Shown one piece after another: positions 1 to 20,323 of a stretch of DNA of 36,036 bases. Where the stretch lies: IMG/VR virus record IMGVR_UViG_3300016484_000187, positions 1-36,036 of that record. The stretch is one strand, 5' to 3'. The translations under genes and the position numbers were made by a program. The stretch is from a virus. Below the pieces are notes generated by a model. The model ran no database searches, was not told the origin of the DNA, and saw only the letters and a list, made by a program, of their open reading frames with translations. The first letter of the stretch is position 1, and every line of letters starts with the position of its first letter.

Positions 1-22
1 AGAAAACCGCCATACAACTTAG
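1..22. repeat. 22-nt terminal redundancy, identical to 36015..36036. Most likely a circular-assembly overlap.
   Basis: agaaaaccgccatacaacttag occurs at both window ends. The dnaB frame is continuous across the join. Confidence 0.9.
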
Positions 23-1383
23 AGACGGAGCGCGTGGTGCTTGGCACGATGGTATTGTTCGAGCAGAGCATTTTCCGTGTTATGGAAATCATTAACGAGC
101 AGACCTTTTACCACGAGAAACACCGTCGCATCTTTGCAGCCATTGATCGACTATTCAGTAAGCGCGAAGCCGTTGACATGGTTACCGTGACTAAAGAACT
201 GAAAGCAACCAACGAACTGGAAATCGTCGGCATCATGACCGTTTCCGAGTTGTGCAACCGTGTTGGTAGTGATGTTCATATTGAAGCGCATTGCAGAGAG
301 ATTCAGGAATTGGCTATGCGTAGGGAAGTGATACAACAGGCTGACAGGTTGATTAATCGCAGTTATGCTGACAGCGTGGACGTGTTTAACATTCGCGATG
401 ACGTTAAGCAGTTAAACGACTTCCTAATGTCGGAAACCACAAAAGGAAAGCAGGTGGTTTCGGTTGCAGAGGTGGTAAAGGTAGAGCGCGAGGAATATGC
501 TAAGAAAGTTTACGCCCGTGAACATAACCTTCCGACTGGAATCAGCACAGGATTCACCGACATGAATCGTGTGTTTGGTGGATGGCAGCCGTCCGACCTT
601 GTGATACTTGCTGCACGTCCTGCAATGGGTAAGACATCATTAGCGTTAGCATTTGCCCGTAATTCCAACAAACCTGTATTGTTTTTCAGCCTTGAAATGT
701 CCGCGCTGCAACTTACAACGCGCCTAATCGTGATGGAATCATGCGTCAATTCGCACAACTACAAGAATGGATGTCTTACTAAGGATGAACTTCGCAAAGT
801 GGAACAGGCGCGTGGTGTGATAGAATGCCATTTATTACAGATTGAGGACAAAGCAGGAATTGATTGGCAGGAATTACGAAGTAAGGCGTTGAAAGCCGCA
901 CAAGGTGGTGTAGGGTTAATTATTGTGGACTACCTACAACTTGTCAGCGTACCAAACGGACGAAACCGAAACCGTGAAGCGATCATCAGCGAAATTAGCC
1001 GTGAGTTGAAGCGTGTGGCAAAAGACTGCAATGTGCCAGTTGTAGCGTTATCGCAATTGAGCCGTGCGGTAGAATCACGCGGTGAGAAACGACCGCAGCT
1101 ATCCGACCTTCGCGAATCAGGCGCAATCGAACAGGATGCGGATATAGTTATGTTTATTCACCGCGCTGAATACTACGGAGAGACGCAGGATGAGAACGGA
1201 CAAAGCACAGCAGGTAAAGCAGAGGTTATAATTGCAAAGCACCGTAACGGAGAAACTGGAACGGTTGACCTGAATTGGGACGGTGAGCATACTTTGTTCG
1301 TTGATCCAAAAAAGACATACATTAGCAACACGCTAAAACCAAACACGGACTTTATTCACAAGGCAGATGACTTGCCGTTTTAA
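1..1383 (+). CDS. dnaB: Replicative DNA helicase, DnaB family. The 5' end lies at 36006..36036, across the linearisation point.
   Basis: Frame 1 is open from nt 1 and continues the ORF-track ORF 34..1383. Joined N-terminus is MNDRKPPYNLETERVVLG, a DnaB-type N-terminus. Walker A 'ARPAMGKTS', 'LFFSLEMS', Walker B 'IIVDYLQL', 'VVALSQLSR', 'LSDLRESGAIEQDADIVMF'. Confidence 0.9.
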   Translation, partial: RKPPYNLETERVVLGTMVLFEQSIFRVMEIINEQTFYHEKHRRIFAAIDRLFSKREAVDMVTVTKELKATNELEIVGIMTVSELCNRVGSDVHIEAHCREIQELAMRREVIQQADRLINRSYADSVDVFNIRDDVKQLNDFLMSETTKGKQVVSVAEVVKVEREEYAKKVYAREHNLPTGISTGFTDMNRVFGGWQPSDLVILAARPAMGKTSLALAFARNSNKPVLFFSLEMSALQLTTRLIVMESCVNSHNYKNGCLTKDELRKVEQARGVIECHLLQIEDKAGIDWQELRSKALKAAQGGVGLIIVDYLQLVSVPNGRNRNREAIISEISRELKRVAKDCNVPVVALSQLSRAVESRGEKRPQLSDLRESGAIEQDADIVMFIHRAEYYGETQDENGQSTAGKAEVIIAKHRNGETGTVDLNWDGEHTLFVDPKKTYISNTLKPNTDFIHKADDLPF

Positions 1384-1433
1384 CGGTATCACTATTTGCG
1401 TAGTAATTTAAAACCTTAACGATAAATTTTTAA

Positions 1434-1778
1434 ATGGAAACAAAAATTAATAATTGGATAGAACAAGCAAAGTTTTTTGGACTTGATTATGCCACAGCAA
1501 AAGCCACAGTTGGAGCTTATGAATTTGATATAAGATATGATTGTGATGGTATTTATGACAAAGGAAGTAAAAGCATAAGAGACGATATAAAGCCTAATAA
1601 TTGTGGATTAACATTAATGATAAGATACAAGAATAGAGTTATGTATAGTGGCTTTGGTGATACAGTAGATGAATTAAAAAACTTTGCTGAGAAATGGTTA
1701 CGCTCAGAGGTTTTAAATTATTATCGCAAATACTGTGTTATGTTTAGCGAAGCGGAGTTGCGAGGTACGAGCAATTAA
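1434..1778 (+). CDS. Hypothetical protein in an AT-rich islet downstream of dnaB
   Basis: 114-aa ORF. Composition is visibly more AT-rich than the flanking genes. No motif recognised. Confidence 0.6.
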   Translation: METKINNWIEQAKFFGLDYATAKATVGAYEFDIRYDCDGIYDKGSKSIRDDIKPNNCGLTLMIRYKNRVMYSGFGDTVDELKNFAEKWLRSEVLNYYRKYCVMFSEAELRGTSN

Positions 1779-1824
1779 ACATAACTCGTAAATACACGCA
1801 ACTCATTGCGCACATCCCTCAACC

Positions 1825-1995
1825 ATGAGCAAAAGAGCAGAACTTCACAAGGAGTATTACAAGCAATTCGGAACGCGCAAAGGTAGCTACAAAGTCTTCG
1901 AGCATTACGTTAAATGGCTCGAAGATAAAGTTCTCGAATTGAGAACGGAGAAAGAAAAAATACAAGCAATCAAAGTATTTACAACAGCCTGTTAA
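1825..1995 (+). CDS. Small hypothetical protein (56 aa), paralogous at its C-terminus to 2063..2368. Absent from the ORF track.
   Basis: Hand translation: MSKRAELHKEYYKQFGTRKGSYKVFEHYVKWLEDKVLELRTEKEKIQAIKVFTTAC*. It shares 'aaccATGAGCAA', the C-terminal KVFTTAC* and the downstream DNA with the next gene. It lies on the same strand as all other genes. Confidence 0.55.
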   Translation: MSKRAELHKEYYKQFGTRKGSYKVFEHYVKWLEDKVLELRTEKEKIQAIKVFTTAC

Positions 1996-2062
1996 AACCA
2001 TGAGAATAGAAACGATTAACCAAAACCAAAGACAAACGATTTACCTTTTTAATAACTAAACC

Positions 2063-2368
2063 ATGAGCAAGTGTAAAAAAGTGTATTTTGCAAACGAAAA
2101 AAGCGCAGAATACTATATAGATAAACTTAATAAAACTTCATCCCGAAAGGTTAAGCCAGTACGCGCATATCTGTGCGAAAGGTGTTTGAATTGGCATTTA
2201 ACAAGCATTATCAGCGAGGAGAGAAAACAGATAATTTACAAGGATAGGCAGATAGCTAACCTTAAAGCCAAAGTGCAGCACTTAGAAAATGAAGTTAAAA
2301 GGCTGACTAATAAAGGTAATAGCAAAACAACAGACCAAGCAACCAAAGTATTTACAACAGCCTGTTAA
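2063..2368 (+). CDS. Small Cys-containing protein with a C-terminal coiled coil
   Basis: 'YLCERCLNWHLTS' is a Cys pair followed by WHLTS, then a heptad-like 'LKAKVQHLENEVKRL'. The protein ends KVFTTAC* like 1825..1995. Confidence 0.6.
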   Translation: MSKCKKVYFANEKSAEYYIDKLNKTSSRKVKPVRAYLCERCLNWHLTSIISEERKQIIYKDRQIANLKAKVQHLENEVKRLTNKGNSKTTDQATKVFTTAC

Positions 2369-2419
2369 ACCATAAAAAAACAAACGATTTACCATTTTAA
2401 CAAATAAAACCAAACAAAA

Positions 2420-2923
2420 ATGAAAGCAACAGATTCACAGAAATTCATGTCTGCATTACAGGCATCAGTACACAACGTGTTCGGATTAACATTCGACGAA
2501 ATAAAAGGCAAAACGCGATTAGGCGAAATAGTGTTGGTTCGTCAATTGGTGATGGGCATACTACGGGAGCATACTATGTTGTCCTTAGTATCAATCGGGC
2601 AAATAGTTAACCGTAACCACGCCACAGTCATTCACGCAATGCGTAGGCATAACAATCGACACAATACAAAGGCTGATCTTAGATACGCGGAAGCATACAG
2701 AACGCTAATGGCTGATTTGTCGCCAAAGTTGGATATGTACGCAGCAGCCGACACACCAGAACTTCGCCTTTGCTTTGTTGGTTATGAAATTGACCAGTTG
2801 TGGAAGTTGTACGAGTTGTGCAAACAAGCAGGTGATGAAGTCAATATGGAGTTGATCGAAATACACATCAAAGCAACGCAGGAACGGATGAGAGTAATTG
2901 ATTCTTTTATGTGTGTTAACTGA
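2420..2923 (+). CDS. DNA-binding protein similar to the DnaA C-terminal domain (domain IV HTH)
   Basis: 'IVLVRQLVMGILREHTMLSLVSIGQIVNRNHATVIHAMRR' matches the DnaA domain IV pattern (R-Q-hydrophobic...SL..IG...DH-T-V-IHA). There is no AAA+ domain. Confidence 0.55.
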   Translation: MKATDSQKFMSALQASVHNVFGLTFDEIKGKTRLGEIVLVRQLVMGILREHTMLSLVSIGQIVNRNHATVIHAMRRHNNRHNTKADLRYAEAYRTLMADLSPKLDMYAAADTPELRLCFVGYEIDQLWKLYELCKQAGDEVNMELIEIHIKATQERMRVIDSFMCVN

Positions 2924-2956
2924 TGTCAATAAATAATATCTAAACGATTTGCGAAT

Positions 2957-3508
2957 GTGCGTAAATTGCAGTCCGTGAACAGAGAACAGATCATCACGGA
3001 GTTGTACAACAGTAAGGAGTTGCGGTCAGCAATAAAGGCTTACTGTCGCACATTCGCAGCCCGTGAAGATTTGTTGCACCTTGTCATTGAGCGTGTTTGT
3101 GCTTTGCCAGAGGAAAACATTTTTAACCTGTATCAAAACGGCAAACTAAAACACTACGCATTTATCACAATGGTGCGTGAGGTGATGCTACCACGATCAA
3201 ACTTTAACAAACAGAATTTTCCTACCTACGAATTTATTGATGACCTTGAATTGGACGTTGTGGATGAGCAAACGGAGCGTGTTGGTCTCGATCCTGAATT
3301 GATACATGAGTTTAAGGCGTTTTGTGATGAGAATAAAACTAATCCCGAACTTAGTTTACAGTCATTGGTGACATTGGAGTACATGGAGTACGAACCGATT
3401 AAGAAACGCAGCTATCGCGATTTTCAGAAGAAAACAGGCATACATTATTCGTCAGCGTGTGTTTACGTGCGGACGATGGTCAAAGAATTTAATAAAACCA
3501 AGCAATGA
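2957..3508 (+). CDS. Putative sigma-70/ECF-like transcription factor. The GTG start is uncertain.
   Basis: Region-2-like 'AREDLLHLVIERVCAL...LKHYAFITMVREVMLPRSN'. C-terminal HTH-like 'RSYRDFQKKTGIHYSSACVYVRTMVKEF'. There is no ATG near the ORF start. Confidence 0.4.
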   Translation: MRKLQSVNREQIITELYNSKELRSAIKAYCRTFAAREDLLHLVIERVCALPEENIFNLYQNGKLKHYAFITMVREVMLPRSNFNKQNFPTYEFIDDLELDVVDEQTERVGLDPELIHEFKAFCDENKTNPELSLQSLVTLEYMEYEPIKKRSYRDFQKKTGIHYSSACVYVRTMVKEFNKTKQ

Positions 3509-4668
3509 AAGTAACCGTATTAACCAACGGATTCGGCAAAGACCGTGAATTGATCGCAAACGGTATGGACTTATATCGTCTTTATATGCCGTATTGCCGA
3601 ATTGATGGAGCGCAAATAGCATCGAAGCATGACATCCTTAATTCGCCATTAGATAGCGATGTGTACGTCATTAACCGAGCGCATCCGATTGAATTGTTTA
3701 CCAAGATTAAAGAGGCGGGTAAAAAGATCATCCTTGACATTGACGATTACTGGAAAATACCAACGTGGCATCAACTACACCACAAATCAATTAAAGGTAG
3801 AATAGAACACGCGACAAACCTTAAAAACGATGAAGCGGTGCGATACTTTACGCATCAGTTAAAAGAGGTCAGCGAGTGGGAGAAACAAACAAAGGAAGTC
3901 GTTAAAATAGTTGATGCGGTTACTTGCTCAACAGAAACCTTAGCGCGTCACATTAAAAACGAATACGGCATTGACGCGACAGTTGTACCTAACACTATTG
4001 ATCCAAACATCACAAAGTTTAGCACGAACAAACAGCCATCAAGATTTACGCGATTTGGATTTATAGCAGGTATGTACCGCGAACGTGATGCAGCGTTAAT
4101 GTTTAACGGTGTTCGTTCTGCTTACCAGAATAAGCATATTCGCTCAAAAGTGCAATTCGTAAACAGCTTTAACCTACATCCATCATTTACGGAAGTGGAG
4201 CGAATGTTTACGTTTAACTACACGCAACTTCCTGACTTTTATCGCGATTACTTAAAGTCATTTGTGCGTGAAGGTAATCACATAGGGAATCAACAGTTTT
4301 ACAAACGACTATGGGCAAAAGACGCGATTGACTACGGTGTGATGTATGAGGAAGTGGACGTGGCGTTGATTCCAATGGAACACGGGGTATTCAATAGCTG
4401 TAAGTCCGAATTGAAGTTGATCGAGGCAGGATGGACAAAATGCGCTGCAATAGTTAGCAATGTTTTACCGTATGCTCCGCATTTGAAGCACAACGCAAAT
4501 GCATTAGTCTGCAATGACAAAGAGGGATGGTTCACAGCAATATTGCGCCTAACAAATGATAAAGAATTGCGCGAACGGTTAGCAAACAATTTGCACGACT
4601 ATGTACGGGAGCATTTTAATCAAAATAAAGCACACAAAAAAGTAACACAAGTACTAAACGCATTATGA
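3505..4668 (+). CDS. Glycosyltransferase, GT-B fold (GT1/GT4-like)
   Basis: 'VDAVTCSTETLARHIKNEYGIDATVVPNTIDP' and the C-terminal 'FNSCKSELKLIEAGWTKCAAIVSN' resemble the GT4 donor-binding region. ATGA overlap with the upstream gene. Confidence 0.55.
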   Translation: MKVTVLTNGFGKDRELIANGMDLYRLYMPYCRIDGAQIASKHDILNSPLDSDVYVINRAHPIELFTKIKEAGKKIILDIDDYWKIPTWHQLHHKSIKGRIEHATNLKNDEAVRYFTHQLKEVSEWEKQTKEVVKIVDAVTCSTETLARHIKNEYGIDATVVPNTIDPNITKFSTNKQPSRFTRFGFIAGMYRERDAALMFNGVRSAYQNKHIRSKVQFVNSFNLHPSFTEVERMFTFNYTQLPDFYRDYLKSFVREGNHIGNQQFYKRLWAKDAIDYGVMYEEVDVALIPMEHGVFNSCKSELKLIEAGWTKCAAIVSNVLPYAPHLKHNANALVCNDKEGWFTAILRLTNDKELRERLANNLHDYVREHFNQNKAHKKVTQVLNAL

Positions 4669-5321
4669 TAGGGATAGGAGTAACGGGATGCAATCGACCT
4701 GAACACGTACAGTTGACGATTGACCAAATTGAGAAGTACACACAATCACCGTACAAATTGCACGTAAGCATTGACACGGAAAAGAAAGGCGTGGCATGGA
4801 ATAAGAACCAATGTTTGGAAGCGTTAAAGGATTGCGATCATATATTCCTGTTTGACGATGACGCTTTTCCACGAGCAAAGGAATGGGAATTGTTTTTTAT
4901 CGAAGCAGCGCAAATGGCTAACATTGGTCACTTTATCTACCAACACGAAACCATCGACGTGCGACTAATTAAAGCGATTGAGCCTAATATCGGAATATAC
5001 AATAACAGCAACGGCTGCATGATGTACTTCACGCGTGAATGTTTGGATAAGGTCGGAATGTTTGATGAGAAGTTTGGTGTGTATGGGTTTGAACACGCGG
5101 ACATGAGCATGAGAGCGCATTTGGAAGGTTGCAGCCCATCACCGTTTGTTTGTCCGTTGGGATCAGCGCAATACATTTATTCATTAGACATTGACAATTA
5201 CCTGCAATATGAAATCGAACATCGTCCGACATTATTTCCCAACGAAATAAAACACGCGGTTGAGGTAAGCCGTGAACGTTGGCAGCAAAAGGTAGAGCAA
5301 TCTAAAAACGACCAAAAATGA
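4665..5321 (+). CDS. Glycosyltransferase family 2-like (GT-A fold)
   Basis: 'GIGVTGCNRPEHV', DxD 'FLFDDDAFP', 'MMYFTRECLDKVGMFDEKFGVYGFEHADMSMR' (GT2-type ED-like motif). Confidence 0.6.
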   Translation: MIGIGVTGCNRPEHVQLTIDQIEKYTQSPYKLHVSIDTEKKGVAWNKNQCLEALKDCDHIFLFDDDAFPRAKEWELFFIEAAQMANIGHFIYQHETIDVRLIKAIEPNIGIYNNSNGCMMYFTRECLDKVGMFDEKFGVYGFEHADMSMRAHLEGCSPSPFVCPLGSAQYIYSLDIDNYLQYEIEHRPTLFPNEIKHAVEVSRERWQQKVEQSKNDQK

Positions 5322-5986
5322 GAATACTTTACAAATACGCATCGCGTTCACGTCCGGACAAGTTCCGTCGTGGATTGGAAAGCATAGCACAAAATTCAGT
5401 TAGCGATAACTACGTAATACTGGCTACATTAGACAGCGACGATCCAACTATTGAGCAATACCGTAAAGAATTACGCGAATGCAGCATAGCATCGCAGGTA
5501 ATTGCAACAGTCGCAACATCAAAGAACAAGATCGACGCGATTAACCGTGACTTAAATGTGGTTCAGGACTGGGATATTTTAGTTAATATGTCCGACGATA
5601 TGGTGTTCACCGCGCAAGGCTTTGATGAGGTAATACGATCAGCGTTTGGGGGTAACACGGATTTGTTCGTGCATTTCAGCGACGGCTACCAAAAGTCAAA
5701 CATCAGCACGATGTCAATAATTGGCCGCAAATACTTCGAGCGTGACGGCTACATTTACCATCCCGACTACAAGAGCCTATGGTGTGACGTAGAAGCAACG
5801 GAGGTGGCTAAATTACGCGGATGCTACAAATACATGGGTGACGACGTGAATATACTCACACACTTACACGTTGCATGGGGTAAGGCTGAATGGGATGACT
5901 TATACAAGCGTAACGAGAATCCTGCCATGTGGAGTCATGATGAAAAACTGTATCACGAACGTAAAGCACGTAACTATGAATTATAG
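5318..5986 (+). CDS. Putative GT-A-like glycosyltransferase, weakly supported
   Basis: 'ATLDSDDP' and 'VNMSDDMVF' are acidic motifs in a roughly 220-aa ORF embedded in the GT cluster. ATGA overlap upstream. Confidence 0.35.
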   Translation: MRILYKYASRSRPDKFRRGLESIAQNSVSDNYVILATLDSDDPTIEQYRKELRECSIASQVIATVATSKNKIDAINRDLNVVQDWDILVNMSDDMVFTAQGFDEVIRSAFGGNTDLFVHFSDGYQKSNISTMSIIGRKYFERDGYIYHPDYKSLWCDVEATEVAKLRGCYKYMGDDVNILTHLHVAWGKAEWDDLYKRNENPAMWSHDEKLYHERKARNYEL

Positions 5987-6581
5987 CCAAAACAACGAAC
6001 AGGAAATAATTGCCAACTACTTTCAAGGTAAGAAGGGCATTTTACTTGACATCGGAGCAAATGATGGTGTTACATTCAGCAACAGCCGTCACCTACTGCT
6101 TAATGGTTGGTCTGGTTGTTTGGTCGAGCCATCGCCATCGTGCGTTAAAAAACTGCTACAACTTTACAAAGATCGCAAAGACGTATCTGTATTTGATGTG
6201 GCAATAGTTAATCAAGATTACAATAAGACATCAATATATTTGCACGTAAATGATCCTCACATTCCAAACGATGACAGTCTATTAAGCACAACGGTAGAAA
6301 CGGAAATAAACAGGTGGAATGGCATAAAGTTTAAGAAAGTCAAAGTAGAGGCAATGAATTATAATGAGTTGTTTGCAGGTTTGCGTTTTGACTTTATTAC
6401 CATCGATGCGGAGGGTATGGATTTATCAATCCTACAACAGATCGACCTTAACGCGTCACAAACGCAAATGGTATGCGTGGAGTACAACGGTGTCAATCCA
6501 GAGCAATACATAGCACATTGCACAAAATACGGCTTAACAGAAATCCACCGAAATGCTGAAAACTTAATTTTTGCACGATGA
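5976..6581 (+). CDS. FkbM-family SAM-dependent methyltransferase
   Basis: 'ILLDIGANDGVTFSNSRHLL..GWSGCLVEPSP' and 'FDFITIDAEGMDLSILQ'. The start is moved to the internal ATG at 5976, because the track start 5871 lies inside the previous gene. Confidence 0.65.
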   Translation: MNYSQNNEQEIIANYFQGKKGILLDIGANDGVTFSNSRHLLLNGWSGCLVEPSPSCVKKLLQLYKDRKDVSVFDVAIVNQDYNKTSIYLHVNDPHIPNDDSLLSTTVETEINRWNGIKFKKVKVEAMNYNELFAGLRFDFITIDAEGMDLSILQQIDLNASQTQMVCVEYNGVNPEQYIAHCTKYGLTEIHRNAENLIFAR

Positions 6582-7192
6582 ACATACAACCAGTATACAG
6601 CACATTTGAGGTGCTAAACCTTACAGGAGAAGTAACCCGTGACGTGTTAACACGAAAAGTTAAAGGCGTACTAATTGAGTGCGGAGTGGCAGCAGGTTCA
6701 CAAATAGCCATGATGCAACAAACACAGTTAGAGTTAGGTCAACACAGAATTATATACGGCTTTGATTCATTTGAAGGTATACCATACGCAACCGAACACG
6801 ATGCTGAACAGCCAGGTATTGGTGAGATTGACAAAACGAAGTTAGGTGCTTTGGAAACAACAGGCGTAAGTTCACACAGCGTAGAAACCGTAATGTACAA
6901 CTTTAATCGGTACGGTTTACCAACTGACAACCTCAATTTGATCAAAGGATGGTTTGAGGACACGGTAGAACAACACGCCAAAGATATTGATAAGATTGCA
7001 TTCCTACGTTTAGACGGTGATTTATACCGTTCAACTAAAGTATGTATGCAACATCTGTTTCCGAAGTTATCAAAGGGCGGTGTGCTAATAATTGACGATT
7101 ACCAATTGTCAGGATGCGCCAAAGCGGTACACGAATTTATTAAACCTGAAAAAGTAACAATTAAACACGGTGTAGGATATTATGTCAAGTGA
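6578..7192 (+). CDS. TylF/MycF-like (macrocin-O-methyltransferase family) class I methyltransferase
   Basis: 'GVLIECGVAAGS', 'FDSFEGIP', 'IKGWFEDT', 'IAFLRLDGDLYRSTKVCMQHLFPKLSKGGVLIIDDY'. Confidence 0.7.
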   Translation: MNIQPVYSTFEVLNLTGEVTRDVLTRKVKGVLIECGVAAGSQIAMMQQTQLELGQHRIIYGFDSFEGIPYATEHDAEQPGIGEIDKTKLGALETTGVSSHSVETVMYNFNRYGLPTDNLNLIKGWFEDTVEQHAKDIDKIAFLRLDGDLYRSTKVCMQHLFPKLSKGGVLIIDDYQLSGCAKAVHEFIKPEKVTIKHGVGYYVK

Positions 7193-7784
7193 AAAACTAT
7201 CCATATTAATTCCAACGATTCCTGAACGTAGTCATCTGTTTGGTGATCTTTACGCTAAACTTCGCACACAAATTGAGAAGCTACCTGTTGCATTGGGCGG
7301 TGTAGAGATATACTACCTTGAAACGCCTAAATTTATTTATGGTGGATTAAGTGTAGGTAAAAAGCGTGAAGCACTTATTAATATGTCTAAGGGCGAATAT
7401 CTTTGCTTTGTTGATGACGATGAAACTATCGCACCAAACTATATTGAGCAATTGGTAAGACTATGCAACATAGGAGCGGACATTGTTACGTTCAAATCAA
7501 TATTTAAGTGCGACTATTATTGGGGTGTTGCCAACATGAGTCTACACCATCCTATAAATGAACAGGCTACACCTTACGGTGAGTTCAAACGCAGACCGTT
7601 TCACATTTGCCCAGTCAAAACAAGCATAGCGCAACGATGCAAATTGCCCGACATCAATAATGCGGAGGATTGGGCGTACATGGAGCAGGTTTTACCGCAA
7701 TGCACAACCGAAATACACACCGAGCAAATACTACATCAATACAACCATAGTGCCAACTTATCGGAAGTAGATCGTATAGCATGA
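7182..7784 (+). CDS. Glycosyltransferase family 2-like
   Basis: 'KLSILIPTIPERSHLF', DxD 'CFVDDDETI', 'NNAEDWAY'. Paralogous to the next ORF. Confidence 0.6.
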   Translation: MSSEKLSILIPTIPERSHLFGDLYAKLRTQIEKLPVALGGVEIYYLETPKFIYGGLSVGKKREALINMSKGEYLCFVDDDETIAPNYIEQLVRLCNIGADIVTFKSIFKCDYYWGVANMSLHHPINEQATPYGEFKRRPFHICPVKTSIAQRCKLPDINNAEDWAYMEQVLPQCTTEIHTEQILHQYNHSANLSEVDRIA

Positions 7785-8362
7785 AGTCCCTGTCAATCCT
7801 AATTCCGTCTTTACACAAGCGTCGCAGTTCATTAGATAGGCTGCTGCGTTCGTTGTACGCTCAAATACTTGCGCTGCCATCTGATCACGCTGCGTTGGTT
7901 GAGGTTATTACTGACGTGGATAACAAAGAGGTGACAACAGGCGAGAAACGGAACAGGCTGTTGAATCGTGCGTTAAAGGATTATGTAGTATTTATCGACG
8001 ATGACGATCAGGTTTATCCGAACTACGTCAAATCAATACTTGAAGCTATCCAAACAGGCGTTGACTGCGTAGCAACGTGCGGACATTACAGCGAGAATGG
8101 TGGAGCGTTAATACTTTGGAAGCTATCTAAAAGTTTTCAAAATGAGAACAAACACGATGGGCAGCGTTTGGTGTTTTATCGTAAGGCTAACCACCTAACA
8201 CCAGTTAAGCGTGAGTTAGCATTAAAGGCTAAATTTCCGCACATCAGCAATGCAGAAGATAAAGCATACAGCGAAGCATTAAATCCTTACCTTAACACCG
8301 AAACAGAAATAACAGAACCAATTTATCACTATGCTTATCTCACGTACAACAAGGAATACTGA
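7781..8362 (+). CDS. Glycosyltransferase family 2-like
   Basis: 'SLSILIPSLHKRRSSLDRLL', DxD 'VFIDDDDQV', 'SNAEDKAY'. Confidence 0.6.
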   Translation: MKSLSILIPSLHKRRSSLDRLLRSLYAQILALPSDHAALVEVITDVDNKEVTTGEKRNRLLNRALKDYVVFIDDDDQVYPNYVKSILEAIQTGVDCVATCGHYSENGGALILWKLSKSFQNENKHDGQRLVFYRKANHLTPVKRELALKAKFPHISNAEDKAYSEALNPYLNTETEITEPIYHYAYLTYNKEY

Positions 8363-9044
8363 TACTTGCGTGGTATCTTATGCAAAGCGCGGTCGGGAGA
8401 ATTACCCTGCTGCCTTGCCTCGATTAGCGGAAAGCATCGAGCGTAACACGTCATACGATTACTTTCTATGGGATGCAACAGATTCAGAACCACCGCATCC
8501 GTTAGCATTCAAGCATTTAACACACGATCAGCGTCCGTACTTCTTCAAGTTGACCATGATACAGCTAATGCGTGAGCAAGGCTACAAAAAGATCATTTGG
8601 TTGGATAGCGTAATGACGTTAGAAAAAGAATTAACGCCTGACTTGTTTACTCATGGCATTATGGCGTTTCATAATTTAGGGCATCCGTTAAAGAATTACA
8701 TTAGCGACCAATGCGTGAGTTATTTTGGATGCGAAAAAGATTTGCCTAATATGGAACAAACATGGGGAGGTGCATTTGCGCTTAACTTCAATACACCTAC
8801 TGCATTATGGGTATTTGATGACTTACTAAAGGCTGCTGACGCTGGGTGTTTTAACAACGGCATATCGACACGCGAAGGGTTTATTGCACATCGTCACGAT
8901 CAATCCGTTTTATCCGTGTTGTTACATTGGTACGAATACAAACTTTTGCCATACGGGACAATAGTAACGCATCCGCATTACTTACAACCATTCGAGTATG
9001 GAACTGACTTTTATATCGCACACCGTCAAATACCAAAGGCATGA
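8331..9044 (+). CDS. Putative nucleotide-diphospho-sugar transferase (GT8/GT-A-like). Start uncertain.
   Basis: 'RPYFFKLTMIQLMREQGYKKIIWLDSVM' and 'HRHDQSVLSVLL' resemble GT-A transferases. There is a 32-nt overlap with the upstream gene if ATG 8331 is used. Confidence 0.35.
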   Translation: MLISRTTRNTDTCVVSYAKRGRENYPAALPRLAESIERNTSYDYFLWDATDSEPPHPLAFKHLTHDQRPYFFKLTMIQLMREQGYKKIIWLDSVMTLEKELTPDLFTHGIMAFHNLGHPLKNYISDQCVSYFGCEKDLPNMEQTWGGAFALNFNTPTALWVFDDLLKAADAGCFNNGISTREGFIAHRHDQSVLSVLLHWYEYKLLPYGTIVTHPHYLQPFEYGTDFYIAHRQIPKA

Positions 9045-9298
9045 CCTACGACCTAACCGAACATACCAAGCAGATAAAAGCGTGTACGACGGAAGTGGTT
9101 CAGGTGGGATGCGCTGACATTGAATTGCACACTACTTTGGTTAACATTTGCAGACGGCACAAAAAGGTGTTGATAACGTACTACATGAATGAAACGGAGA
9201 AACAAACGTCCGACTATCACGGAACGTACCACATACAACGCAAATGGATTAGCGACATTGACCTAAGTAAATACAATTACGTAATAATTAACAAATGA
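9041..9298 (+). CDS. Hypothetical protein
   Basis: 85-aa ORF with ATGA overlaps on both sides. Confidence 0.5.
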   Translation: MTYDLTEHTKQIKACTTEVVQVGCADIELHTTLVNICRRHKKVLITYYMNETEKQTSDYHGTYHIQRKWISDIDLSKYNYVIINK

Positions 9299-9582
9299 TA
9301 CACCAACTATTCATCAACGCATTAATCGGGGTGTTCTGCTATTGGTTCGCGGAATGTACTTTGATACCTCAACGCATCCTGCTAAAATTAAGCGGCAAGA
9401 TCAGCCTAAAACCGTTTACCTGTGGGCTTTGCCTGTCATGGTGGAGCGCGTTAGTCATTAACATTATGCTATTCTGTAATTTTACACAGGTAGAATCTAT
9501 TATTGTTACCGTGCTAATGTCAGGCTTTGCCTCTATGTTTAGCGTGTTAACGATGGAGTTCCACAAGAACCTGCAACGATGA
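9295..9582 (+). CDS. Small integral membrane protein (DUF1360-like Cys motif)
   Basis: Three hydrophobic segments. 'PFTCGLCLSWWSALV'. Confidence 0.5.
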   Translation: MIHQLFINALIGVFCYWFAECTLIPQRILLKLSGKISLKPFTCGLCLSWWSALVINIMLFCNFTQVESIIVTVLMSGFASMFSVLTMEFHKNLQR

Positions 9583-9797
9583 CCGAACAGACATACAACG
9601 CTTTACAACAGCATCGCGAAGCCATTGACCGCTTTATACAAGTCGGTCAGGAGGTTAGCACAGCACCGCGTCAGGCGTTACAGGCTGCATGGTTAGAAAT
9701 ATACGGTGAACTGAAGCCTATGTCATGCTCAAGTTGCATCCGTGAAGCATACGAACGAATACATCAACACATATTAGAATATGAGCGAAACAGGTAG
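9579..9797 (+). CDS. Hypothetical protein
   Basis: 72-aa ORF in the overlapping gene chain. Confidence 0.5.
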   Translation: MTEQTYNALQQHREAIDRFIQVGQEVSTAPRQALQAAWLEIYGELKPMSCSSCIREAYERIHQHILEYERNR

Positions 9798-10245
9798 AGA
9801 CGAAAAAGGAAGATTTGTAGATGGCAACCTGTGGGCGTACGTTAAAAAGAACGTAGGTCGTCCACCGCACTACGAAACACCAGAAGAATTATTAGAGAAG
9901 GCATTAGAGTATTTTGACTTTTGCGACCAAAAGAAGAAGGGCAAGTACAACGAAGCGCATTTGAGAATGTGGCTCGGTTTTACTCGTTCTGTATGGCACG
10001 ATTACTACCGAAACAAACCCGAATTTTCGGACACAATGGACTATATCACGTCTTACTTAGAAGGTGATGTGGAAGACAAGCTAATGTGGGCAGGATCAAC
10101 ACAGGGCGCGATCTTTAAGTTGAAGAACAAATACGGATGGAAGGACGAAGTAACACAACACCAACAAATAACAAATGTCACAGCGGCTTTCGGTTCAGTT
10201 GTACAACCCACACAAGAATCAGGCGGTAATACATCAGGCAATTAA
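9781..10245 (+). CDS. terS: Terminase small subunit
   Basis: 'GRPPHYETPEELLEKALEYFDFC', 'MWLGFTRSVWHDY', 'GAIFKLKNKYGWKD'. It lies directly upstream of the large subunit. Confidence 0.7.
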   Translation: MSETGRDEKGRFVDGNLWAYVKKNVGRPPHYETPEELLEKALEYFDFCDQKKKGKYNEAHLRMWLGFTRSVWHDYYRNKPEFSDTMDYITSYLEGDVEDKLMWAGSTQGAIFKLKNKYGWKDEVTQHQQITNVTAAFGSVVQPTQESGGNTSGN

Positions 10246-11377
10246 CGAAAACCTGAATAAGTATTTTGTCCTGAACATTGGTCGTCAATTCGGTAAAACG
10301 ATGTTGGCGATGAATCAGTTGTACTATTGGATGTTCAACCATTTAGGCTGCAAATGTGCGTGGGTGTCACCTGTTTACAAGCAGTCAAAGAAAGTATTTG
10401 AGGAAATGGTGTTGGCGTTTGAAGGTACTGGACTAATTGAAAAGAACGCTACGGAGTTAACTATAAAGGTGGGCAAATCTTCACTTCAATTTTTCAGCGC
10501 GGAAAGGTACGACAACATTCGAGGCTTTACGTTTGACTACCTTGTATGCGATGAGTTCGCATTTATGGACGAAGCAGCATGGACGGAGGTACTACGGGCA
10601 ACGGTGTTGGTGAAGGGCAAAAAGGTGCTGTTAATCAGTACGCCAAAGGGTAAGAATCACTTTTACAACCTGTTTAACTTAGACGGTGTCAACGAACAAT
10701 ACAAGTCGTTCCAAATGAGTTCTTATGACAACCCACTAATTAACCCATCCGAAATTGACGACGCGCGGTTGACATTACCTGATCATGTATTCAGGCAGGA
10801 GTATTTAGCGGAGTTTATTGACGGTGGTGCAGGGATATTTAGTCCAAAGTACAAAGAAGCATCGGGCGGTGTTAAGTTTTACGGAGGTGTCGATTTAGGA
10901 CGTGCGGATGACTATTCTGTATTGTCTATCTTTAACGAGAAAGGTGAGCAGGTATATCTAAACCGATGGAGACACGATACATGGTCAAACATAACACGGC
11001 AAATATCCGAGCAGATAAACAGGTTTAACGCTACGGTCAACGTCGAGGTTAACAGTATCGGTGATGCGTTGATAGATCAGATAAAATCACAATGCAAGAA
11101 TCCATACAACGTGCAGCCGTTTGTAACATCAGCTAAGAGCAAGAACGACATTATAGAATCTTTGGCGGTAGCAACACAAACCGATGCGGTAACGTTTTTA
11201 CCTATCGACTGGCTACAAAAGGAATTCGACGTGTTTAGTTTTGAATACAACGCCAAAAGCAGAACAATAAAATACGGTGCGCCTTACGGTTTCCATGATG
11301 ACGGAATAATGGCAACGGCAATGGCACACGCAGCACTAAAAGAAGGTAAAGGAGCTAACTTCGCAATACGTTTTTAA
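10175..11377 (+). CDS. terL: Terminase large subunit
   Basis: Walker A-like 'NIGRQFGKT', Walker B 'YLVCDEFAFMDE', 'LLISTPKG'. Nuclease half: 'GGVDLGRADDYSVLSI' and 'GFHDDGIMA'. Confidence 0.8.
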   Translation: MSQRLSVQLYNPHKNQAVIHQAINENLNKYFVLNIGRQFGKTMLAMNQLYYWMFNHLGCKCAWVSPVYKQSKKVFEEMVLAFEGTGLIEKNATELTIKVGKSSLQFFSAERYDNIRGFTFDYLVCDEFAFMDEAAWTEVLRATVLVKGKKVLLISTPKGKNHFYNLFNLDGVNEQYKSFQMSSYDNPLINPSEIDDARLTLPDHVFRQEYLAEFIDGGAGIFSPKYKEASGGVKFYGGVDLGRADDYSVLSIFNEKGEQVYLNRWRHDTWSNITRQISEQINRFNATVNVEVNSIGDALIDQIKSQCKNPYNVQPFVTSAKSKNDIIESLAVATQTDAVTFLPIDWLQKEFDVFSFEYNAKSRTIKYGAPYGFHDDGIMATAMAHAALKEGKGANFAIRF

Positions 11378-11378
11378 T

Positions 11379-11972
11379 ATGAAATACAGAAATTTAACAG
11401 CAGGAAACATCGGTGAGTTTATGCGATTGTCGCAGGAGCAAGTATTGGACATTGACCTATTGGATAGGGATATCAAGTTGCTATCTATGTGGTATGGTAA
11501 GCCTACCGACTATTTTGACAGTATGAACTTCGCGGAGATCAACGAACACCGCAAAGAGTTGTATAAACTGCTTACGGAATATCCAAACAGTCGATACGAG
11601 CCTGTATTTAAGGTCAAAGGTTACAAGTTTGTATGCCTACCTAATATCAACACGATAAAGGTTAAGCATGAGCGGTCATTGCAGATATTGAACCTGAACG
11701 ATAGCAACCTTTACGACCTACTTCCGTACATCGTGGCTATTTTTAGCGATCAGAAAAAGCAATGGTTCAAAAAGCAGCTAACATTTGACGAGCGTGTCAA
11801 ATTGTTCAAAGATCACCTACCTGCGGACATCGCCATTGGGATTGCGCTTTTTTTTTGCGCGGCATCAAAAGCCATCGAGCCTCACGTCCTAACTTATTTG
11901 GAAAGCCTAAGCGATCAACTAATGAAGGAAGCGGAAGCGGTAATCAAAGCGTCGGAGACAGATGGGGAATAG
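11379..11972 (+). CDS. Hypothetical protein containing a T9 run near its 3' end
   Basis: 197-aa ORF. T9 at 11848-11856. The -1 frame is open from 11789 to 12139. Confidence 0.6.
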   Translation: MKYRNLTAGNIGEFMRLSQEQVLDIDLLDRDIKLLSMWYGKPTDYFDSMNFAEINEHRKELYKLLTEYPNSRYEPVFKVKGYKFVCLPNINTIKVKHERSLQILNLNDSNLYDLLPYIVAIFSDQKKQWFKKQLTFDERVKLFKDHLPADIAIGIALFFCAASKAIEPHVLTYLESLSDQLMKEAEAVIKASETDGE

Positions 11973-11989
11973 CCTACACGATATACAAT

Positions 11990-12139
11990 ATGACCAACGG
12001 GGATTTGACCAAAGAAGAACAGTACTATGAATTAACCCTGAATGAGTGGTATAATCGACTGGCGTTAATTAAAGACGTTCAGGACGAACACGCTGAACGG
12101 ATGGAGCGGTTAAAACACGAGATGCAAAGTAAACGTTAA
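11990..12139 (+). CDS. Possible small helical protein (49 aa), or the 3' part of a frameshifted or mis-assembled product of 11379
   Basis: Internal ATG of track ORF 11855..12139. 'MTNGDLTKEEQYYELTLNEWYNRLALIKDVQDEHAERMERLKHEMQSKR' looks protein-like, whereas the upstream part of that frame is low-complexity. Confidence 0.35.
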   Translation: MTNGDLTKEEQYYELTLNEWYNRLALIKDVQDEHAERMERLKHEMQSKR

Positions 12140-12144
12140 CCCGT

Positions 12145-12156
12145 TTTGTAATTTTA
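12145..12156 (+). promoter_or_regulatory. Conserved late-gene motif TTTGTAATTTTA, 5 nt upstream of the ATG
   Basis: It recurs exactly at 18994-19005 and 21953-21964, with a 9-nt core at 19625-19633. Spacing to the ATG is always 5 nt. Confidence 0.5.
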
Positions 12157-12161
12157 CGGAC

Positions 12162-12701
12162 ATGGCTTCCAATGAATCCGACGAAATTCAAGATTACATA
12201 CAAGACTGGGCGCAAACTGTTGTTGATGCTATCCGTGCTAATTTAGTACGTAAGGATGCATACTACGACGAAAGCGATTTAGCAGAATCTATTGAACCAA
12301 TAGTTACTTCGACAGCGGACGGCTATCAGTTGACCATTGTAATGAACAACTATTGGGAGTATATCGACAAAGGGCGTCGACCAACACGAGCATCTGGTAA
12401 TGGCAGCGTCCGTAAAAACCTGTTATTGTGGATTAGTAAACGCGGTATCGCACCACAGTTGAAGCAGGTGATGACCGATAAAAAGACGGGCAAATCATTC
12501 ACACGGACATTCAAGAATACGTTACAATGGCGTGATAGCCTATCTTACGCTATATCGTCCAAGATTCACAAGAAAGGATTTGTGGCTAAGGGCAAAGGCT
12601 TTTTCTCCGAAGTATGGAATGAGGATGCGATCAATGAGTTATTACAAACGCTGTTAACAAAGTCAGGCGAAGTCTTTGTGGCAGAAATATTAGAGGAATA
12701 A
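12162..12701 (+). CDS. Virion-associated hypothetical protein
   Basis: 179-aa ORF preceded by the late motif. It is the first gene of the structural block. Confidence 0.55.
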   Translation: MASNESDEIQDYIQDWAQTVVDAIRANLVRKDAYYDESDLAESIEPIVTSTADGYQLTIVMNNYWEYIDKGRRPTRASGNGSVRKNLLLWISKRGIAPQLKQVMTDKKTGKSFTRTFKNTLQWRDSLSYAISSKIHKKGFVAKGKGFFSEVWNEDAINELLQTLLTKSGEVFVAEILEE

Positions 12702-13918
12702 TGGCAATTAATATCACACACGAGCCACAGGAGTGGACACCCGTGTACAACGAGATGCGCTTTGTTGTAGGTTCTACCAACACAGCACAACCTAACTTTC
12801 GCTACGTTGCTGACATTTACGTGTCAGGAGTTGCAGGTTACACACGTCTTACTTGTGATTCTAATGTAATTACAGGTTACGGTACGTTTGACATTAGCAA
12901 CGTCGTACAGGCTCACATCAGCCATGATATCGATCACACGGTATACGGTTTTCAGCGTTGCACAAATAGCTACAAACCGTATGTTGTAAGATTCGGTGAG
13001 CAATACGGAACTAATCCCGTTGTTTATCCTAACCTGCAAGATACAGGAACAAAGTACGCATGGAACGCATCACTTGATCCTGTAGTGTTGGAGACATACA
13101 ACTACCAGAACTACACGCTTGGATTAGGCGGTGTGGTACTTACACAACAGCCTGAAACGCAGAAATTCGTTGCAGATTCCGAGCAAAGATGGTTGTACTT
13201 TATTAACGACGTGTCAGGTAGTGCGTATTATTTAACCTGCACCACTTACGATTCAGCGGGTAACACGTTAGGTACTTATTTGATTGAAAATCCTTACCAA
13301 GCATCTTCAAGTATTACGCAGGATAAATTGTTGCGTGTTGGCATCGGTGTTGAGGATTTGAACAACGCTACCTTAGCAAGTGGTTCGCAGCCTGTGATTG
13401 ATAGCACGGTTAACAGATACGAAGTTGCACTAACAAATTACGCTAATAACAATCCGAGTACATCGTATTACTTTGAGCGCGATTGTACAGCACGTGGTCA
13501 AAATCCTGTTGAGATAGTATTCTTAAATGAGTTAGGCGGTTTCGATATGTACTCTTACAAATACCGTCGAGACATTACGTCAACTGTGGAGCGCGAGTTT
13601 GTAGAGAAAAATAACGGCTACCTGTCAGGCAATAGTTGGAATCAAGACGTAATCAACAGAGGACAGCGACAAGTGTACACGTCAGCAACTGATACGCTAA
13701 ATTGCACGTCCGAGATGATAGGTAGCGAGGTTACAATAAACTGGCTAAAGGAACTATTCGAAAGTCCCGAAGTTTACTGGCACAATGGTGAGTATTTGCG
13801 ACCTGTGATTGTAGTTGATAGCAATTACCACACTATCAGATACAAGGTATGGGATATGCTGTGGGAGTTTAAGACATCGTTCAGATTAGCCAACAAACGC
13901 AAACGCCAACAGGGATGA
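12701..13918 (+). CDS. Putative tail/baseplate structural protein
   Basis: 405 aa, beta-rich with Ser/Thr/Asn-rich composition. Overlaps both neighbours. Confidence 0.45.
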   Translation: MAINITHEPQEWTPVYNEMRFVVGSTNTAQPNFRYVADIYVSGVAGYTRLTCDSNVITGYGTFDISNVVQAHISHDIDHTVYGFQRCTNSYKPYVVRFGEQYGTNPVVYPNLQDTGTKYAWNASLDPVVLETYNYQNYTLGLGGVVLTQQPETQKFVADSEQRWLYFINDVSGSAYYLTCTTYDSAGNTLGTYLIENPYQASSSITQDKLLRVGIGVEDLNNATLASGSQPVIDSTVNRYEVALTNYANNNPSTSYYFERDCTARGQNPVEIVFLNELGGFDMYSYKYRRDITSTVEREFVEKNNGYLSGNSWNQDVINRGQRQVYTSATDTLNCTSEMIGSEVTINWLKELFESPEVYWHNGEYLRPVIVVDSNYHTIRYKVWDMLWEFKTSFRLANKRKRQQG

Positions 13919-16626: not shown

Positions 16627-17267
16627 GTTACAAGCCTAATACGGGTATTGGTAATATGTTCAAATCCGTTTACGATACAAATGACAACGGTATCGTTGAC
16701 GTGGCTGCATCCGCAAACGTTGTGGAGTGGGCAAATGTTAGCAGTAAGCCGTCAACATTTACACCGTCAGCGCATACACACGCAATAGCTGATGTAACCG
16801 ACTTACAAACAGCATTGGATGGTAAAGCACCAACGATAACAACGGCACAGGCATACGCAACGGCTACAACATCAATAAGTGCTGCGACATACGCTGACAT
16901 TACAGGCTGTAGCGTGTCATTGGCAGCAGGAACATGGCTCGTTATTGGTCACGTTGTAGGTGCTGCTGCTAACTTAATCATTCAGGGATTTATAGCGTTG
17001 ACTGATGGCAGTAACAACGTGATTTCTGAATCTGCAATGACACGACCTGCATCTGCAACGGCATCATTGAACTCACCAACATCGACAAGCGTGTTTGGAA
17101 TAGTTACACCATCAACAACTACGACTTACAAGCTACGTGCAGCTCGTGGATTAACAACACATACGTCCACCATCACAATTTACGACGGCACAGGATATAA
17201 CACAACAAACCACGCAACGAACAACAGCGATAAAGGCACACAAATCTTAGCGATTAAAATAGGATAA
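16623..17267 (+). CDS. Tail fibre-like protein
   Basis: 'FTPSAHTHAIADVTDLQTALDGKAP' is a motif common in phage fibre proteins. The C-terminus is Thr/Ala-rich. Confidence 0.5.
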   Translation: MSYKPNTGIGNMFKSVYDTNDNGIVDVAASANVVEWANVSSKPSTFTPSAHTHAIADVTDLQTALDGKAPTITTAQAYATATTSISAATYADITGCSVSLAAGTWLVIGHVVGAAANLIIQGFIALTDGSNNVISESAMTRPASATASLNSPTSTSVFGIVTPSTTTTYKLRAARGLTTHTSTITIYDGTGYNTTNHATNNSDKGTQILAIKIG

Positions 17268-17268
17268 C

Positions 17269-18981: not shown

Positions 18982-18993
18982 ACGAACAACACA

Positions 18994-19005
18994 TTTGTAA
19001 TTTTA
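18994..19005 (+). promoter_or_regulatory. Late-gene motif TTTGTAATTTTA, 5 nt upstream of the ATG
   Basis: Exact copy of the 12145 motif. Confidence 0.5.
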
Positions 19006-19010
19006 TTAAC

Positions 19011-19628: not shown

Positions 19629-19633
19629 TTTTA
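19625..19633 (+). promoter_or_regulatory. Core of the late-gene motif (GTAATTTTA), 5 nt upstream of the ATG
   Basis: Partial copy with the same spacing to the ATG. Confidence 0.4.
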
Positions 19634-19638
19634 ATAAC

Positions 19639-20298: not shown

Positions 20299-20323
20299 TA
20301 TTCACTAATAAAAACATAAAAAA

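Follow-up and report, generated by a model that had tools for sequence, protein, structure and literature searches.

A two-part glycosyltransferase and methyltransferase locus with an exchangeable cassette in a small environmental phage lineage

What does a phage with a 36-kb genome build with eight consecutive glycan-type enzyme genes, and on which acceptor? The question is raised by a virus genome in IMG/VR, record IMGVR_UViG_3300016484_000187, of which we analyzed positions 1 to 36,036 as one stretch of 36,036 nucleotides, hereafter called the window. An original prediction, made from the letters alone, had described a glycosyltransferase (GT) and methyltransferase (MT) cluster of eight overlapping genes, about 5.5 kb and roughly 15% of the genome, and had proposed that it glycosylates virion proteins or remodels a host envelope glycan. 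We recovered exactly those gene coordinates, 3505-9044 on the plus strand, and the cluster occupies 5,540 bp, or 15.4% of the genome. It comprises six glycosyltransferases (one GT-B and five GT-A) and two sugar-type O-methyltransferases, one of the FkbM and one of the TylF family. As judged from nucleotide and protein comparisons with related phages, the first three glycosyltransferase genes are a conserved core, and the distal ~3 kb is a serotype-like exchangeable cassette. We give roughly an even chance to the explanation that the locus is a cytoplasmic module decorating one or more phage structural proteins with a methylated oligosaccharide made from host nucleotide sugars and S-adenosylmethionine; its acceptor, step order, donor sugars and benefit are what we infer.

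Eight soluble enzymes in one gene chain

The eight open reading frames (ORFs) overlap at seven internal junctions, by 4, 4, 11, 4, 11, 4 and 32 nt, with ATGA at four of them. The overlapping chain proved longer than had been described: it runs unbroken from 2957 to 11377, through three small genes into the small and large terminase subunit genes (TerS and TerL), as the original prediction had placed it, and no terminator-like site on the plus strand was found in window positions 1-12000. The genes of the cluster are as follows.

3505..4668, plus strand: ORF1, GT-B glycosyltransferase; matches phrog_7162 'glycosyltransferase' at 3e-31
4665..5321, plus strand: ORF2, GT-A (GT7/GT2-like), conserved core; matches phrog_2456 at 1.5e-40
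5318..5986, plus strand: ORF3, GT-A (GT2-like by predicted fold), conserved core; matches phrog_14945 at 1e-20, assigned by AlphaFold2 (AF2) and Foldseek
5976..6581, plus strand: ORF4, FkbM-family S-adenosylmethionine-dependent methyltransferase; PF05050 at 2.4e-14
6578..7192, plus strand: ORF5, TylF/MycF/NovP-family sugar O-methyltransferase; PF05711 at 3.6e-38
7182..7784, plus strand: ORF6, GT2 glycosyltransferase, paralogue of ORF7; PF00535 at 3.7e-6, 27.4 bits against a cut-off of 23.3
7781..8362, plus strand: ORF7, GT2 glycosyltransferase; PF00535 at 1.4e-9, 38.6 bits against 23.3
8331..9044, plus strand: ORF8, retaining-type GT-A (GT6/GT8-like by predicted fold); assigned by AF2 and Foldseek
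About 5920..9040, plus strand: exchangeable tailoring cassette ORF4-ORF8, delimited by nucleotide-identity breakpoints

The family assignments of the original prediction held throughout, and the motifs that it quoted (FLFDDDAFP, FVDDDE, FIDDDD and NAED.AY) were all found in the translations. For ORF1, the Pfam models Glyco_transf_4 and Glycos_transf_1 scored 21.5 and 16.3 bits, under their cut-offs of 28.5 and 26.4. Besides the PHROG match, a profile of 22 orthologues matched PglA, a GT-B enzyme, at 1.4e-3 and also a member of the GT1 family at 3e-3; the orthologues themselves gave weak Glyco_trans_1_4 matches, and their invariant residues include DxDD, K300, S301, K304 and E307. ORF2, one of three enzymes described earlier as GT2-like with a DxD motif, has an invariant DxD (D64, D66), and its profile weakly matched beta-1,4-galactosyltransferase beta4GalT1 (0.013). 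The other two, ORF6 and ORF7, both exceed the PF00535 cut-off and are paralogues, as had been claimed, with 31% identity at 6e-23; D73-D74-D75 and E159-D160 are invariant across 14 sequences of their family.

The two ORFs that had been called weaker GT-A candidates, ORF3 and ORF8, were resolved only through structure prediction, because searches of the PDB with their family profiles failed; direct phmmer searches of the PDB with ORF1, ORF2, ORF4, ORF7 and ORF8 were likewise uninformative. The AF2 models, built with homologue alignments, reached a predicted local distance difference test (pLDDT) score of 95.6 for ORF3 and 95.9 for ORF8 (about 96 for both), and Foldseek aligned both with glycosyltransferase folds. 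For ORF3, the top PDB matches were GT-A/GT2 enzymes, led by the fucosyltransferase WrtF (1.7e-8) and including SpsA, BcsA and TarS/TarP (E 1e-8 to 1e-5). The predicted structure makes ORF3 a GT2-like GT-A at fold level only, since no Pfam membership was found (nor any NCBIfam match); S92-D93-D94 (SDD) is invariant, and the protein has more than 1,222 homologues. The ORF8 model matched Bacteroides BoGT6a best in the PDB (5e-8, TM 0.63), together with human GTA/GTB (ABO), a3GalT and the UGGT catalytic domain, and in BFVD it matched uncharacterised Caudovirales proteins and giant-virus GT6/8/34 enzymes. By this fold match, ORF8 is a putative retaining-type GT-A of the GT6/GT8/GT24-like kind. It has no Pfam, NCBIfam or PHROG match; W90, D92 and H187-R-H-D-Q191 (W-x-D-S and HRHDQ) are invariant, and the DxD position reads D92-S93. 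Its family comprises 1,912 representative clusters at E<=1e-3 in a library of 1.8 billion proteins and was not found in isolated phages; wherever its members occur in other phages, they lie beside GT/MT genes.

Both methyltransferases scored well above their Pfam cut-offs. ORF4 reached 54.3 bits with PF05050 (cut-off 22.7) and matched TIGR01444 at 3.5e-12 (47 bits against 37.7). ORF5 reached 131.8 bits with PF05711 (cut-off 23), and its PDB relatives include 5i10/4cdz, MycF and NovP, at 1e-21 to 1e-25, with CalS11 also close. Its closest cellular relative is Mycobacterium avium MtfB (38% identity), and the motifs ExGVxxG, DSFxGxP, GWFxxT, DxDLYxST and D173 are common to ORF5, MtfB and the C-terminal domain of gp108 of mycobacteriophage Che8. 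ORF5 thus shares the conserved motifs of MycF, NovP, CalS11 and MtfB and differs from them in a shorter N-terminus: at 204 aa, it is without the ~70-90 N-terminal residues (lid) of solved TylF-family enzymes. A scan of IMG/VR for ORF5 returned zero relatives, the search patterns being too specific.

None of the eight proteins has a membrane segment (KD19 maximum 1.27). In agreement with the original prediction, family scans of the window ORFs detected no initiating phosphoglycosyltransferase, Wzx/Wzy flippase or polymerase, nucleoside diphosphate (NDP)-sugar gene or base hydroxymethylase; they also detected no ABC transporter, ligase or Gtr protein.

A conserved core and an exchangeable cassette

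A survey of related phages, which the original prediction had suggested, located the same cluster at the same site. A relative of the window TerL is encoded by 232 IMG/VR stretches, of which 80 loci, 60-89% identical, were kept; we compared the 29 relatives whose sequence extends 7 kb or more upstream of TerL. A multi-gene cluster occupies the site in 26 of them, none is present in two, and one (L068) retains the GT-B gene alone; these counts refer to contigs rather than independent events, because several contigs are near-duplicates. The cluster had been thought unusual for a phage of this kind; within its lineage, it is the rule. This prevalence, the GC content of the cluster (0.40-0.44, the same as the remaining genome) and the lack of any detected integrase in the window support selection on the locus.

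The common gene order is an upstream gene, an ORF1-like GT-B, an ORF2-like GT-A, an ORF3-like GT-A, a variable segment, a small membrane protein with other small genes, and the terminase. All cluster-bearing relatives have an ORF1-like GT-B, and in L068 it is the sole glycosyltransferase. Across the variable segment, at least four alternative gene sets were found among the relatives.

Type A (that of the window): FkbM, TylF, one or two GT2 enzymes and an ORF8-like GT
Type B: FkbM, a second FkbM, GT2 and an ORF8-like GT
Type C: GT2 and three uncharacterised proteins (~275, 240 and 166 aa)
Type D: GT2 and uncharacterised proteins of ~272, 224 and 87 aa

In addition, the variable segment of L019 has a hexapeptide acyltransferase. 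The uncharacterised proteins of the alternative cassettes (families f4, f8, f9, f20 and f21) gave no Pfam or PHROG match and no credible hhalign link to the window GT/MT families, the best being f4 against the ORF8 family at 23% probability.

The boundaries of the segment are sharp. Against L017, the closest sequenced relative of the window (TerL 86%, ORF1 82% and ORF2 89% identical), nucleotide identity ends at about window position 5919 and returns at about 9041; between these points, L017 has a type C cassette, without ORF4, ORF5 and ORF8. The more distant L004 (TerL 62%, ORF1 40%) nevertheless encodes ORF5-ORF8 at 53-65% identity. Two further pairs differ by clean replacement at the same breakpoints: L051 and L050 have flanks that are 91.7% and 93.6% identical around 2.75 kb without similarity, and the same holds for L090 and L105. 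The opposite case is that of L109 and L016, in which the cassette is 93.8% identical on backbones of only ~76% identity. At a finer scale, exactly the TylF gene is missing from L002 and L003, whose identity to the window is otherwise 92-94% (window 6582-7187; L003 at 8858), a natural single-gene presence/absence polymorphism at an ATGA-type junction.

The module also occurs in other genomic contexts. In L018, L019 and L020, whose terminase belongs to another family, and in L006 and L008, whose morphotype differs, GT/MT clusters again adjoin terminase or tail genes; L006, L007 and L008 are myovirus-like contigs, and L008 also carries NDP-sugar epimerase/dehydratase and FdtA-like genes. L020 (NGFH01000005.1) is a 360-kb contig of a Bacteroidetes metagenome-assembled genome (MAG), and its syntenic cluster at 8182-16860 reads GT-B, ORF2-like, ORF3-like, GT2, FkbM, ORF8-like and MT-like, then a Terminase_3 TerL. 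The L020 locus has the appearance of a prophage that carries the same module but belongs to another packaging type. In L018, a helix-turn-helix (HTH) repressor-like gene and a tyrosine integrase lie directly upstream of the cluster (2145-3662), so that the lineage includes temperate phages.

Candidate acceptors of the glycan

Among isolated phages, tblastn with ORF2 gave 738 records; Mycobacterium phages (clusters F, C and J) account for 567 of these, and phAPEC8-like coliphages are also represented. Relatives were further found for ORF7 in Che8, cluster J phages and Gordonia phages, for ORF3 in Streptomyces phages, and for ORF1 in phAPEC8-like phages. Four of the eight genes (ORF2, ORF5, ORF6 and ORF7) are homologous to genes of actinobacteriophage glycosylation cassettes. 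The clearest link is to Che8 gp108, a fusion of 391 aa in which residues 10-184 form an ORF6/7-like GT2 and residues 233-361 an ORF5-like TylF; PHROG 8858 is the same fusion. By BLASTP, the GT2 part matched ORF7 at 2e-23 and ORF6 at 1e-16 (both 32% identity; for ORF6, over gp108 residues 10-163), and the TylF part matched ORF5 at 3e-14 (27% identity). Because gp108 fuses homologues of these three proteins, in the manner of a Rosetta stone, ORF5, ORF6 and ORF7 probably serve one pathway. ORF2 matched gp109 weakly (E 0.004) and the cluster F protein gp100 at 2.5e-26, with 32% identity to the N-terminal part of GUmbie gp100.

According to three papers that cite Freeman et al. 2023, in Che8, Corndog and Myrna phage glycosyltransferases add O-linked glycans at the C-termini of capsid and tail-tube subunits, Che8 gp110 and Corndog gp38 being essential (PMC12363180, PMC12619734, PMC13445384); gp110 is reported to be required for glycosylation of the capsid (PMC12363180). 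The window locus resembles the Che8 cassette in combining phage glycosyltransferases without membrane segments with a TylF-type methyltransferase function. It differs from gp108-110 in having eight separate genes instead of three, with GT and MT functions split rather than fused, and in adding a GT-B, an FkbM methyltransferase and a retaining-type GT-A while lacking a gp110 homologue. It heads a late operon, whereas the Che8 cassette lies at the right genome end; it contains an exchangeable cassette, its host is probably a Bacteroidota member, and its glycoprotein product is a predicted one.

Other systems share parts of this design. The Squint/Omegavirus genes 15-20 (cluster J) form a GT / MT-GT / GT / GT cassette within the structural module; identity is 38.6% between Squint gp15 and ORF7 and 27% between gp18 and ORF2. 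That cassette, unlike the window's, is flanked by the genes for the major capsid protein and the head-to-tail adaptor, includes a Ser/Thr kinase, and has no FkbM and no ORF1, ORF3 or ORF8 homologue; we found no direct experimental evidence for the cluster J cassette in the literature. In the chlorovirus PBCV-1 (A064R, A061L, A111/114R), virus-encoded cytoplasmic glycosyltransferases glycosylate the major capsid protein, two methyltransferases act in sequence, and antigenic variants map to these genes. There, A064R-D3 first methylates the terminal rhamnose of the capsid glycan at O-2, and A061L then does so at O-3 (PMC9614988). PBCV-1 is a eukaryotic giant virus with N-linked glycans and multidomain enzymes; the likeness lies in the logic of the pathway rather than in the enzyme families. 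Literature searches on phAPEC8-type GT clusters and on FkbM enzymes in phage virions found no reported function.

A glycosyltransferase cluster in a phage also calls to mind DNA hypermodification, in which the enzymes would build a glycan on 5-hydroxymethylcytosine or 5-hydroxymethyluracil as protection against restriction, as in T4 and in the C5-MT/5mYOX/GT clusters. Phage GT-A and GT-B enzymes glycosylate DNA, and successive glycosyltransferases can extend DNA glycans; the DDD and ED-aromatic motifs of ORF6 and ORF7 resemble those of the DNA GT-A enzymes (bioRxiv 10.1101/2023.12.21.572611). Clusters of that kind (C5-MT/5mYOX or ThyS with GTs) combine GT-A and GT-B enzymes, sometimes with secondary glycosyltransferases and sugar-modifying enzymes, and DNA methylases lie near the locus in some relatives (PF00145 in L014; a ParB_N-N6_N4 methyltransferase in L035). 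A 282-aa protein beside a C5-methyltransferase in the relatives, considered as a candidate dioxygenase, gave no dioxygenase match. The base-activating enzymes of the DNA glycan clusters are, however, absent from the window: Pfam and PHROG scans of its ORFs detected no thymidylate-synthase-like or other base hydroxymethylase, no TET/JBP or other dioxygenase, no C5-methyltransferase, no DNA polymerase and no genes for the deoxynucleotide pool, and the unassigned non-structural ORFs, at 144 aa or less, are too small to encode base-activating enzymes. DNA glycosylation is for these reasons very improbable, the more so as two sugar O-methyltransferases and six glycosyltransferases exceed any described DNA glycan pathway and the Che8 homologue acts on proteins.

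Under the virion explanation, the cluster would be co-expressed with the packaging genes, and the core enzymes ORF1, ORF2 and ORF3 would attach the first sugar to the acceptor and build the inner glycan. For the initiating transferase, ORF1 is the leading candidate, since the most reduced relative retains this gene alone. The cassette would then add the outer sugars through two inverting GT2 paralogues (ORF6 and ORF7) and the retaining-type GT-A (ORF8), and ORF4 and ORF5 would O-methylate these sugars, probably as terminal caps. Swaps of the cassette, which bring in a second FkbM, a hexapeptide acyltransferase or uncharacterised proteins, would give different outer glycans, or 'glycotypes'; since the core is kept and the cassette is swapped, otherwise near-identical phages should show different outer glycans.

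Several observations favor a virion acceptor. All folds and families are supported, the motifs are intact, the proteins are soluble and there are no export genes. The gene order points in the same direction, the locus being chained to the terminase, analogous clusters adjoining packaging or tail genes and the Squint cassette lying beside the capsid gene, as does the homology to the Che8 system, for which glycosylation was shown experimentally. By analogy, the chlorovirus offers a precedent for two methyltransferases acting on a virion glycan. Of the two roles in the original prediction, virion glycosylation gains support from the actinophage homology of ORF2, ORF5, ORF6 and ORF7; the function of the cluster itself is still one that we infer.

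Other observations weigh against this explanation. No acceptor was identified among the structural proteins of the window. The Che8 (L111) major capsid protein (5051-5872) and major tail protein (7613-8422) both end in -GS (…NKTGS and …YSDGS); the window structural proteins have no shared C-terminal motif of this kind and no convincing Ser/Thr-rich tails. For gp110, BLASTP found no match among the window ORFs, and hhalign gave the ORF3 and ORF8 family profiles less than 1% probability. Identity to the actinophage enzymes is only 27-39%, and homology does not single out an acceptor, because O-antigen, glycolipid and antibiotic pathways also make frequent use of GT2, TylF and FkbM enzymes. For mycobacteriophages, the benefit shown is shielding from antibodies, to which nothing obvious corresponds in an environmental phage. 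The lineage includes temperate or integrated members (the integrase of L018; L020 within its 360-kb contig), and cassette turnover would likewise be expected if the target were a host surface glycan.

The last two points bear on a second explanation, that the enzymes remodel a host envelope glycan at the cytoplasmic face of the inner membrane, acting on undecaprenyl-phosphate-linked O-antigen, capsule or O-glycan intermediates or on the lipopolysaccharide core, with export by host machinery; the benefit would be a block to superinfection, or progeny kept from adsorbing to debris. Because some lineage members are temperate or integrated, a host-directed role retains some probability, and we regard this explanation as rather unlikely overall. 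Bacterial O-antigen glycosyltransferases are likewise peripheral and without transmembrane segments, methyl caps are a known O-antigen feature, and the cassette diversity resembles that of O-antigen loci. The best PDB match of the ORF1 profile, PglA, acts on Und-PP-diNAcBac; MtfB, the closest cellular relative of ORF5, belongs to glycopeptidolipid synthesis in M. avium; and a conserved small membrane protein is encoded just downstream (9295-9582). Against these points, no integrase or repressor was detected in the window genome, the cluster is chained to the terminase rather than expressed independently as a moron, and Gtr-type, flippase, polymerase and ligase genes are all absent from the window. 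The GtrA/GtrB/GtrC modules are a known case of phage-encoded glycan modification; they differ in being membrane proteins that act on the periplasmic side via undecaprenyl-phosphate-glucose, whereas the window proteins have neither transmembrane segments nor Gtr matches. Moreover, rebuilding the surface late in a lytic cycle would leave little time for an effect, and the only matches in isolated phages are actinophage cassettes with documented virion glycosylation and uncharacterised GT clusters.

That no virion acceptor of the cluster was identified also leaves some room for another kind of acceptor: a host protein, modified for takeover or counter-defence, or a soluble or lipid-linked methylated glycoconjugate or small molecule. 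Characterised TylF and FkbM members act on macrolide, aminocoumarin or polyketide substrates, and the conserved small proteins encoded at 9041-9797 have no assigned role. Genes for aglycone biosynthesis are absent from the window, however, a six-glycosyltransferase pathway seems excessive for inactivating a host protein, and the module lies consistently beside structural or packaging genes in unrelated phages; nothing specific speaks for an acceptor of this kind, which we consider quite improbable.

Genome setting, host and implications

The window ends share 22 identical bases (1-22 and 36015-36036), so that the contig is circular and complete, with a true length of 36,014 bp. Every gene is on the plus strand. 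Features around the cluster, from Pfam and PHROG scans unless indicated otherwise, are as follows.

34-1383, plus strand: DnaB helicase
2420-2923, plus strand: DnaA-C-like HTH protein
2957..3508, plus strand: upstream gene, with a 4-nt ATGA overlap with the GT-B gene
9041..9797, plus strand: three small conserved genes (85 aa, a 95-aa membrane protein, 72 aa), with 4-nt overlaps with their neighbors
9781-11377, plus strand: TerS and TerL, phrog_606 at 6e-17 and phrog_2 at 6e-48
Within 11379-24215, plus strand: tail and fibre-like genes
19011, plus strand: prohead protease
20324-21310, plus strand: probable major capsid protein
22326, plus strand: portal
27879-28771, plus strand: holin and amidase
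Elsewhere in the window genome, plus strand: metallophosphoesterase, RecT with exonuclease, and RadC

The upstream gene had been called sigma-like. This label was not borne out, as its product has no Pfam, PHROG or NCBIfam match and only five homologues; a gene of similar size (families f3/f5) stands at this position in nearly all relatives, and family f5 gave a weak HTH_28 match (E 0.014). Downstream of the cluster, the 95-aa protein (9295-9582) has a hydrophobic segment (KD19 2.01) and no family match, and it is kept in nearly all relatives, including the GT-B-only L068. A second variable island lies before TerL (window 9781-10245; L002, L003, L017, L035 and L061), where several close relatives have, in place of TerS, a ParB_N-domain gene with an N6/N4 DNA methylase or a gene resembling 3'-phosphoadenosine-5'-phosphosulfate (PAPS) reductase either fused to it or after it, together with a different 125-aa protein. 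The late genes at 11379-24215 are oddly ordered: the terminase is followed by six tail/fibre-like genes (one of 903 aa and one tape-measure-like of 570 aa) and then by the prohead protease, a scaffold-like gene, the probable major capsid protein and the portal; most genes of this region are without family matches. Scans of the window ORFs detected no integrase, repressor, DNA polymerase or nucleotide-metabolism genes.

The host is probably a Gram-negative member of the Bacteroidota, because a prophage-like region of a Bacteroidetes contig carries the module, Shine-Dalgarno motifs are nearly absent and gene leaders are A-rich. A Shine-Dalgarno-like 4-mer stood at -20 to -5 in 4 of 51 genes (background 10.5%), which, with the A-rich leaders, fits Bacteroidota translation initiation. 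The Bacteroidota -7 motif TAnnTTTG was not enriched window-wide (30 observed against 38 expected) and did not occur before the glycosylation cluster, and scans of the window for promoters and terminators gave counts at chance level. TAnnTTTG was seen on the plus strand at 30518, 32156, 34089 and 34939, 20-70 nt 5' of the early-region genes at 30564, 32186, 34158 and 34966. Neither the cluster nor 25 kb of the genome, used as nucleotide queries against INPHARED, matched any isolated phage, and the nearest TerL of any isolated phage is less than 30% identical to that of the window.

The enzyme families, and phage-encoded virion glycosylation as an idea, were already known. In our literature searches, virion glycosylation encoded by the phage itself had been demonstrated for a few mycobacteriophages only, with evasion of antibodies given as its value, and none was found for phages of Gram-negative hosts. 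New here are the setting, in a small environmental phage lineage that probably infects Gram-negative Bacteroidota; the scale, with eight genes and 15% of the genome; the split-gene organization relative to Che8; and, above all, the two-part architecture with its exchangeable cassette. The exchangeable distal half is the most informative feature of the locus and is invisible from a single sequence. In addition, the ORF3 and ORF8 families are two glycosyltransferase families without a Pfam model.

A further, decidedly speculative proposal, which we think unlikely as it stands, is that the glycan is carried on the virion and that the cassette is a heritable 'glycotype' under frequency-dependent selection. 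If so, proteins would not be the only determinant of host interaction, the glycan being a second one; the glycan may serve as a ligand for outer-membrane glycan-binding proteins of the Bacteroidota, aiding adsorption, or alternatively as a variable shield against recognition by hosts or grazers. Such a system would be without precedent among phages of Gram-negative bacteria, and no earlier virion glycosylation system would match its serotype-like cassette switching.

Collectively, our findings suggest that such machinery belongs to the standard gene content of an abundant, uncultured lineage of environmental phages of ~35-40 kb, which invest heavily in it. The O-antigen-like turnover of the outer pathway points to an ecological role of phage surface glycans beyond animal hosts, and variation in these glycans would constitute a new layer of phage diversity, invisible to protein-based analyses of host range.

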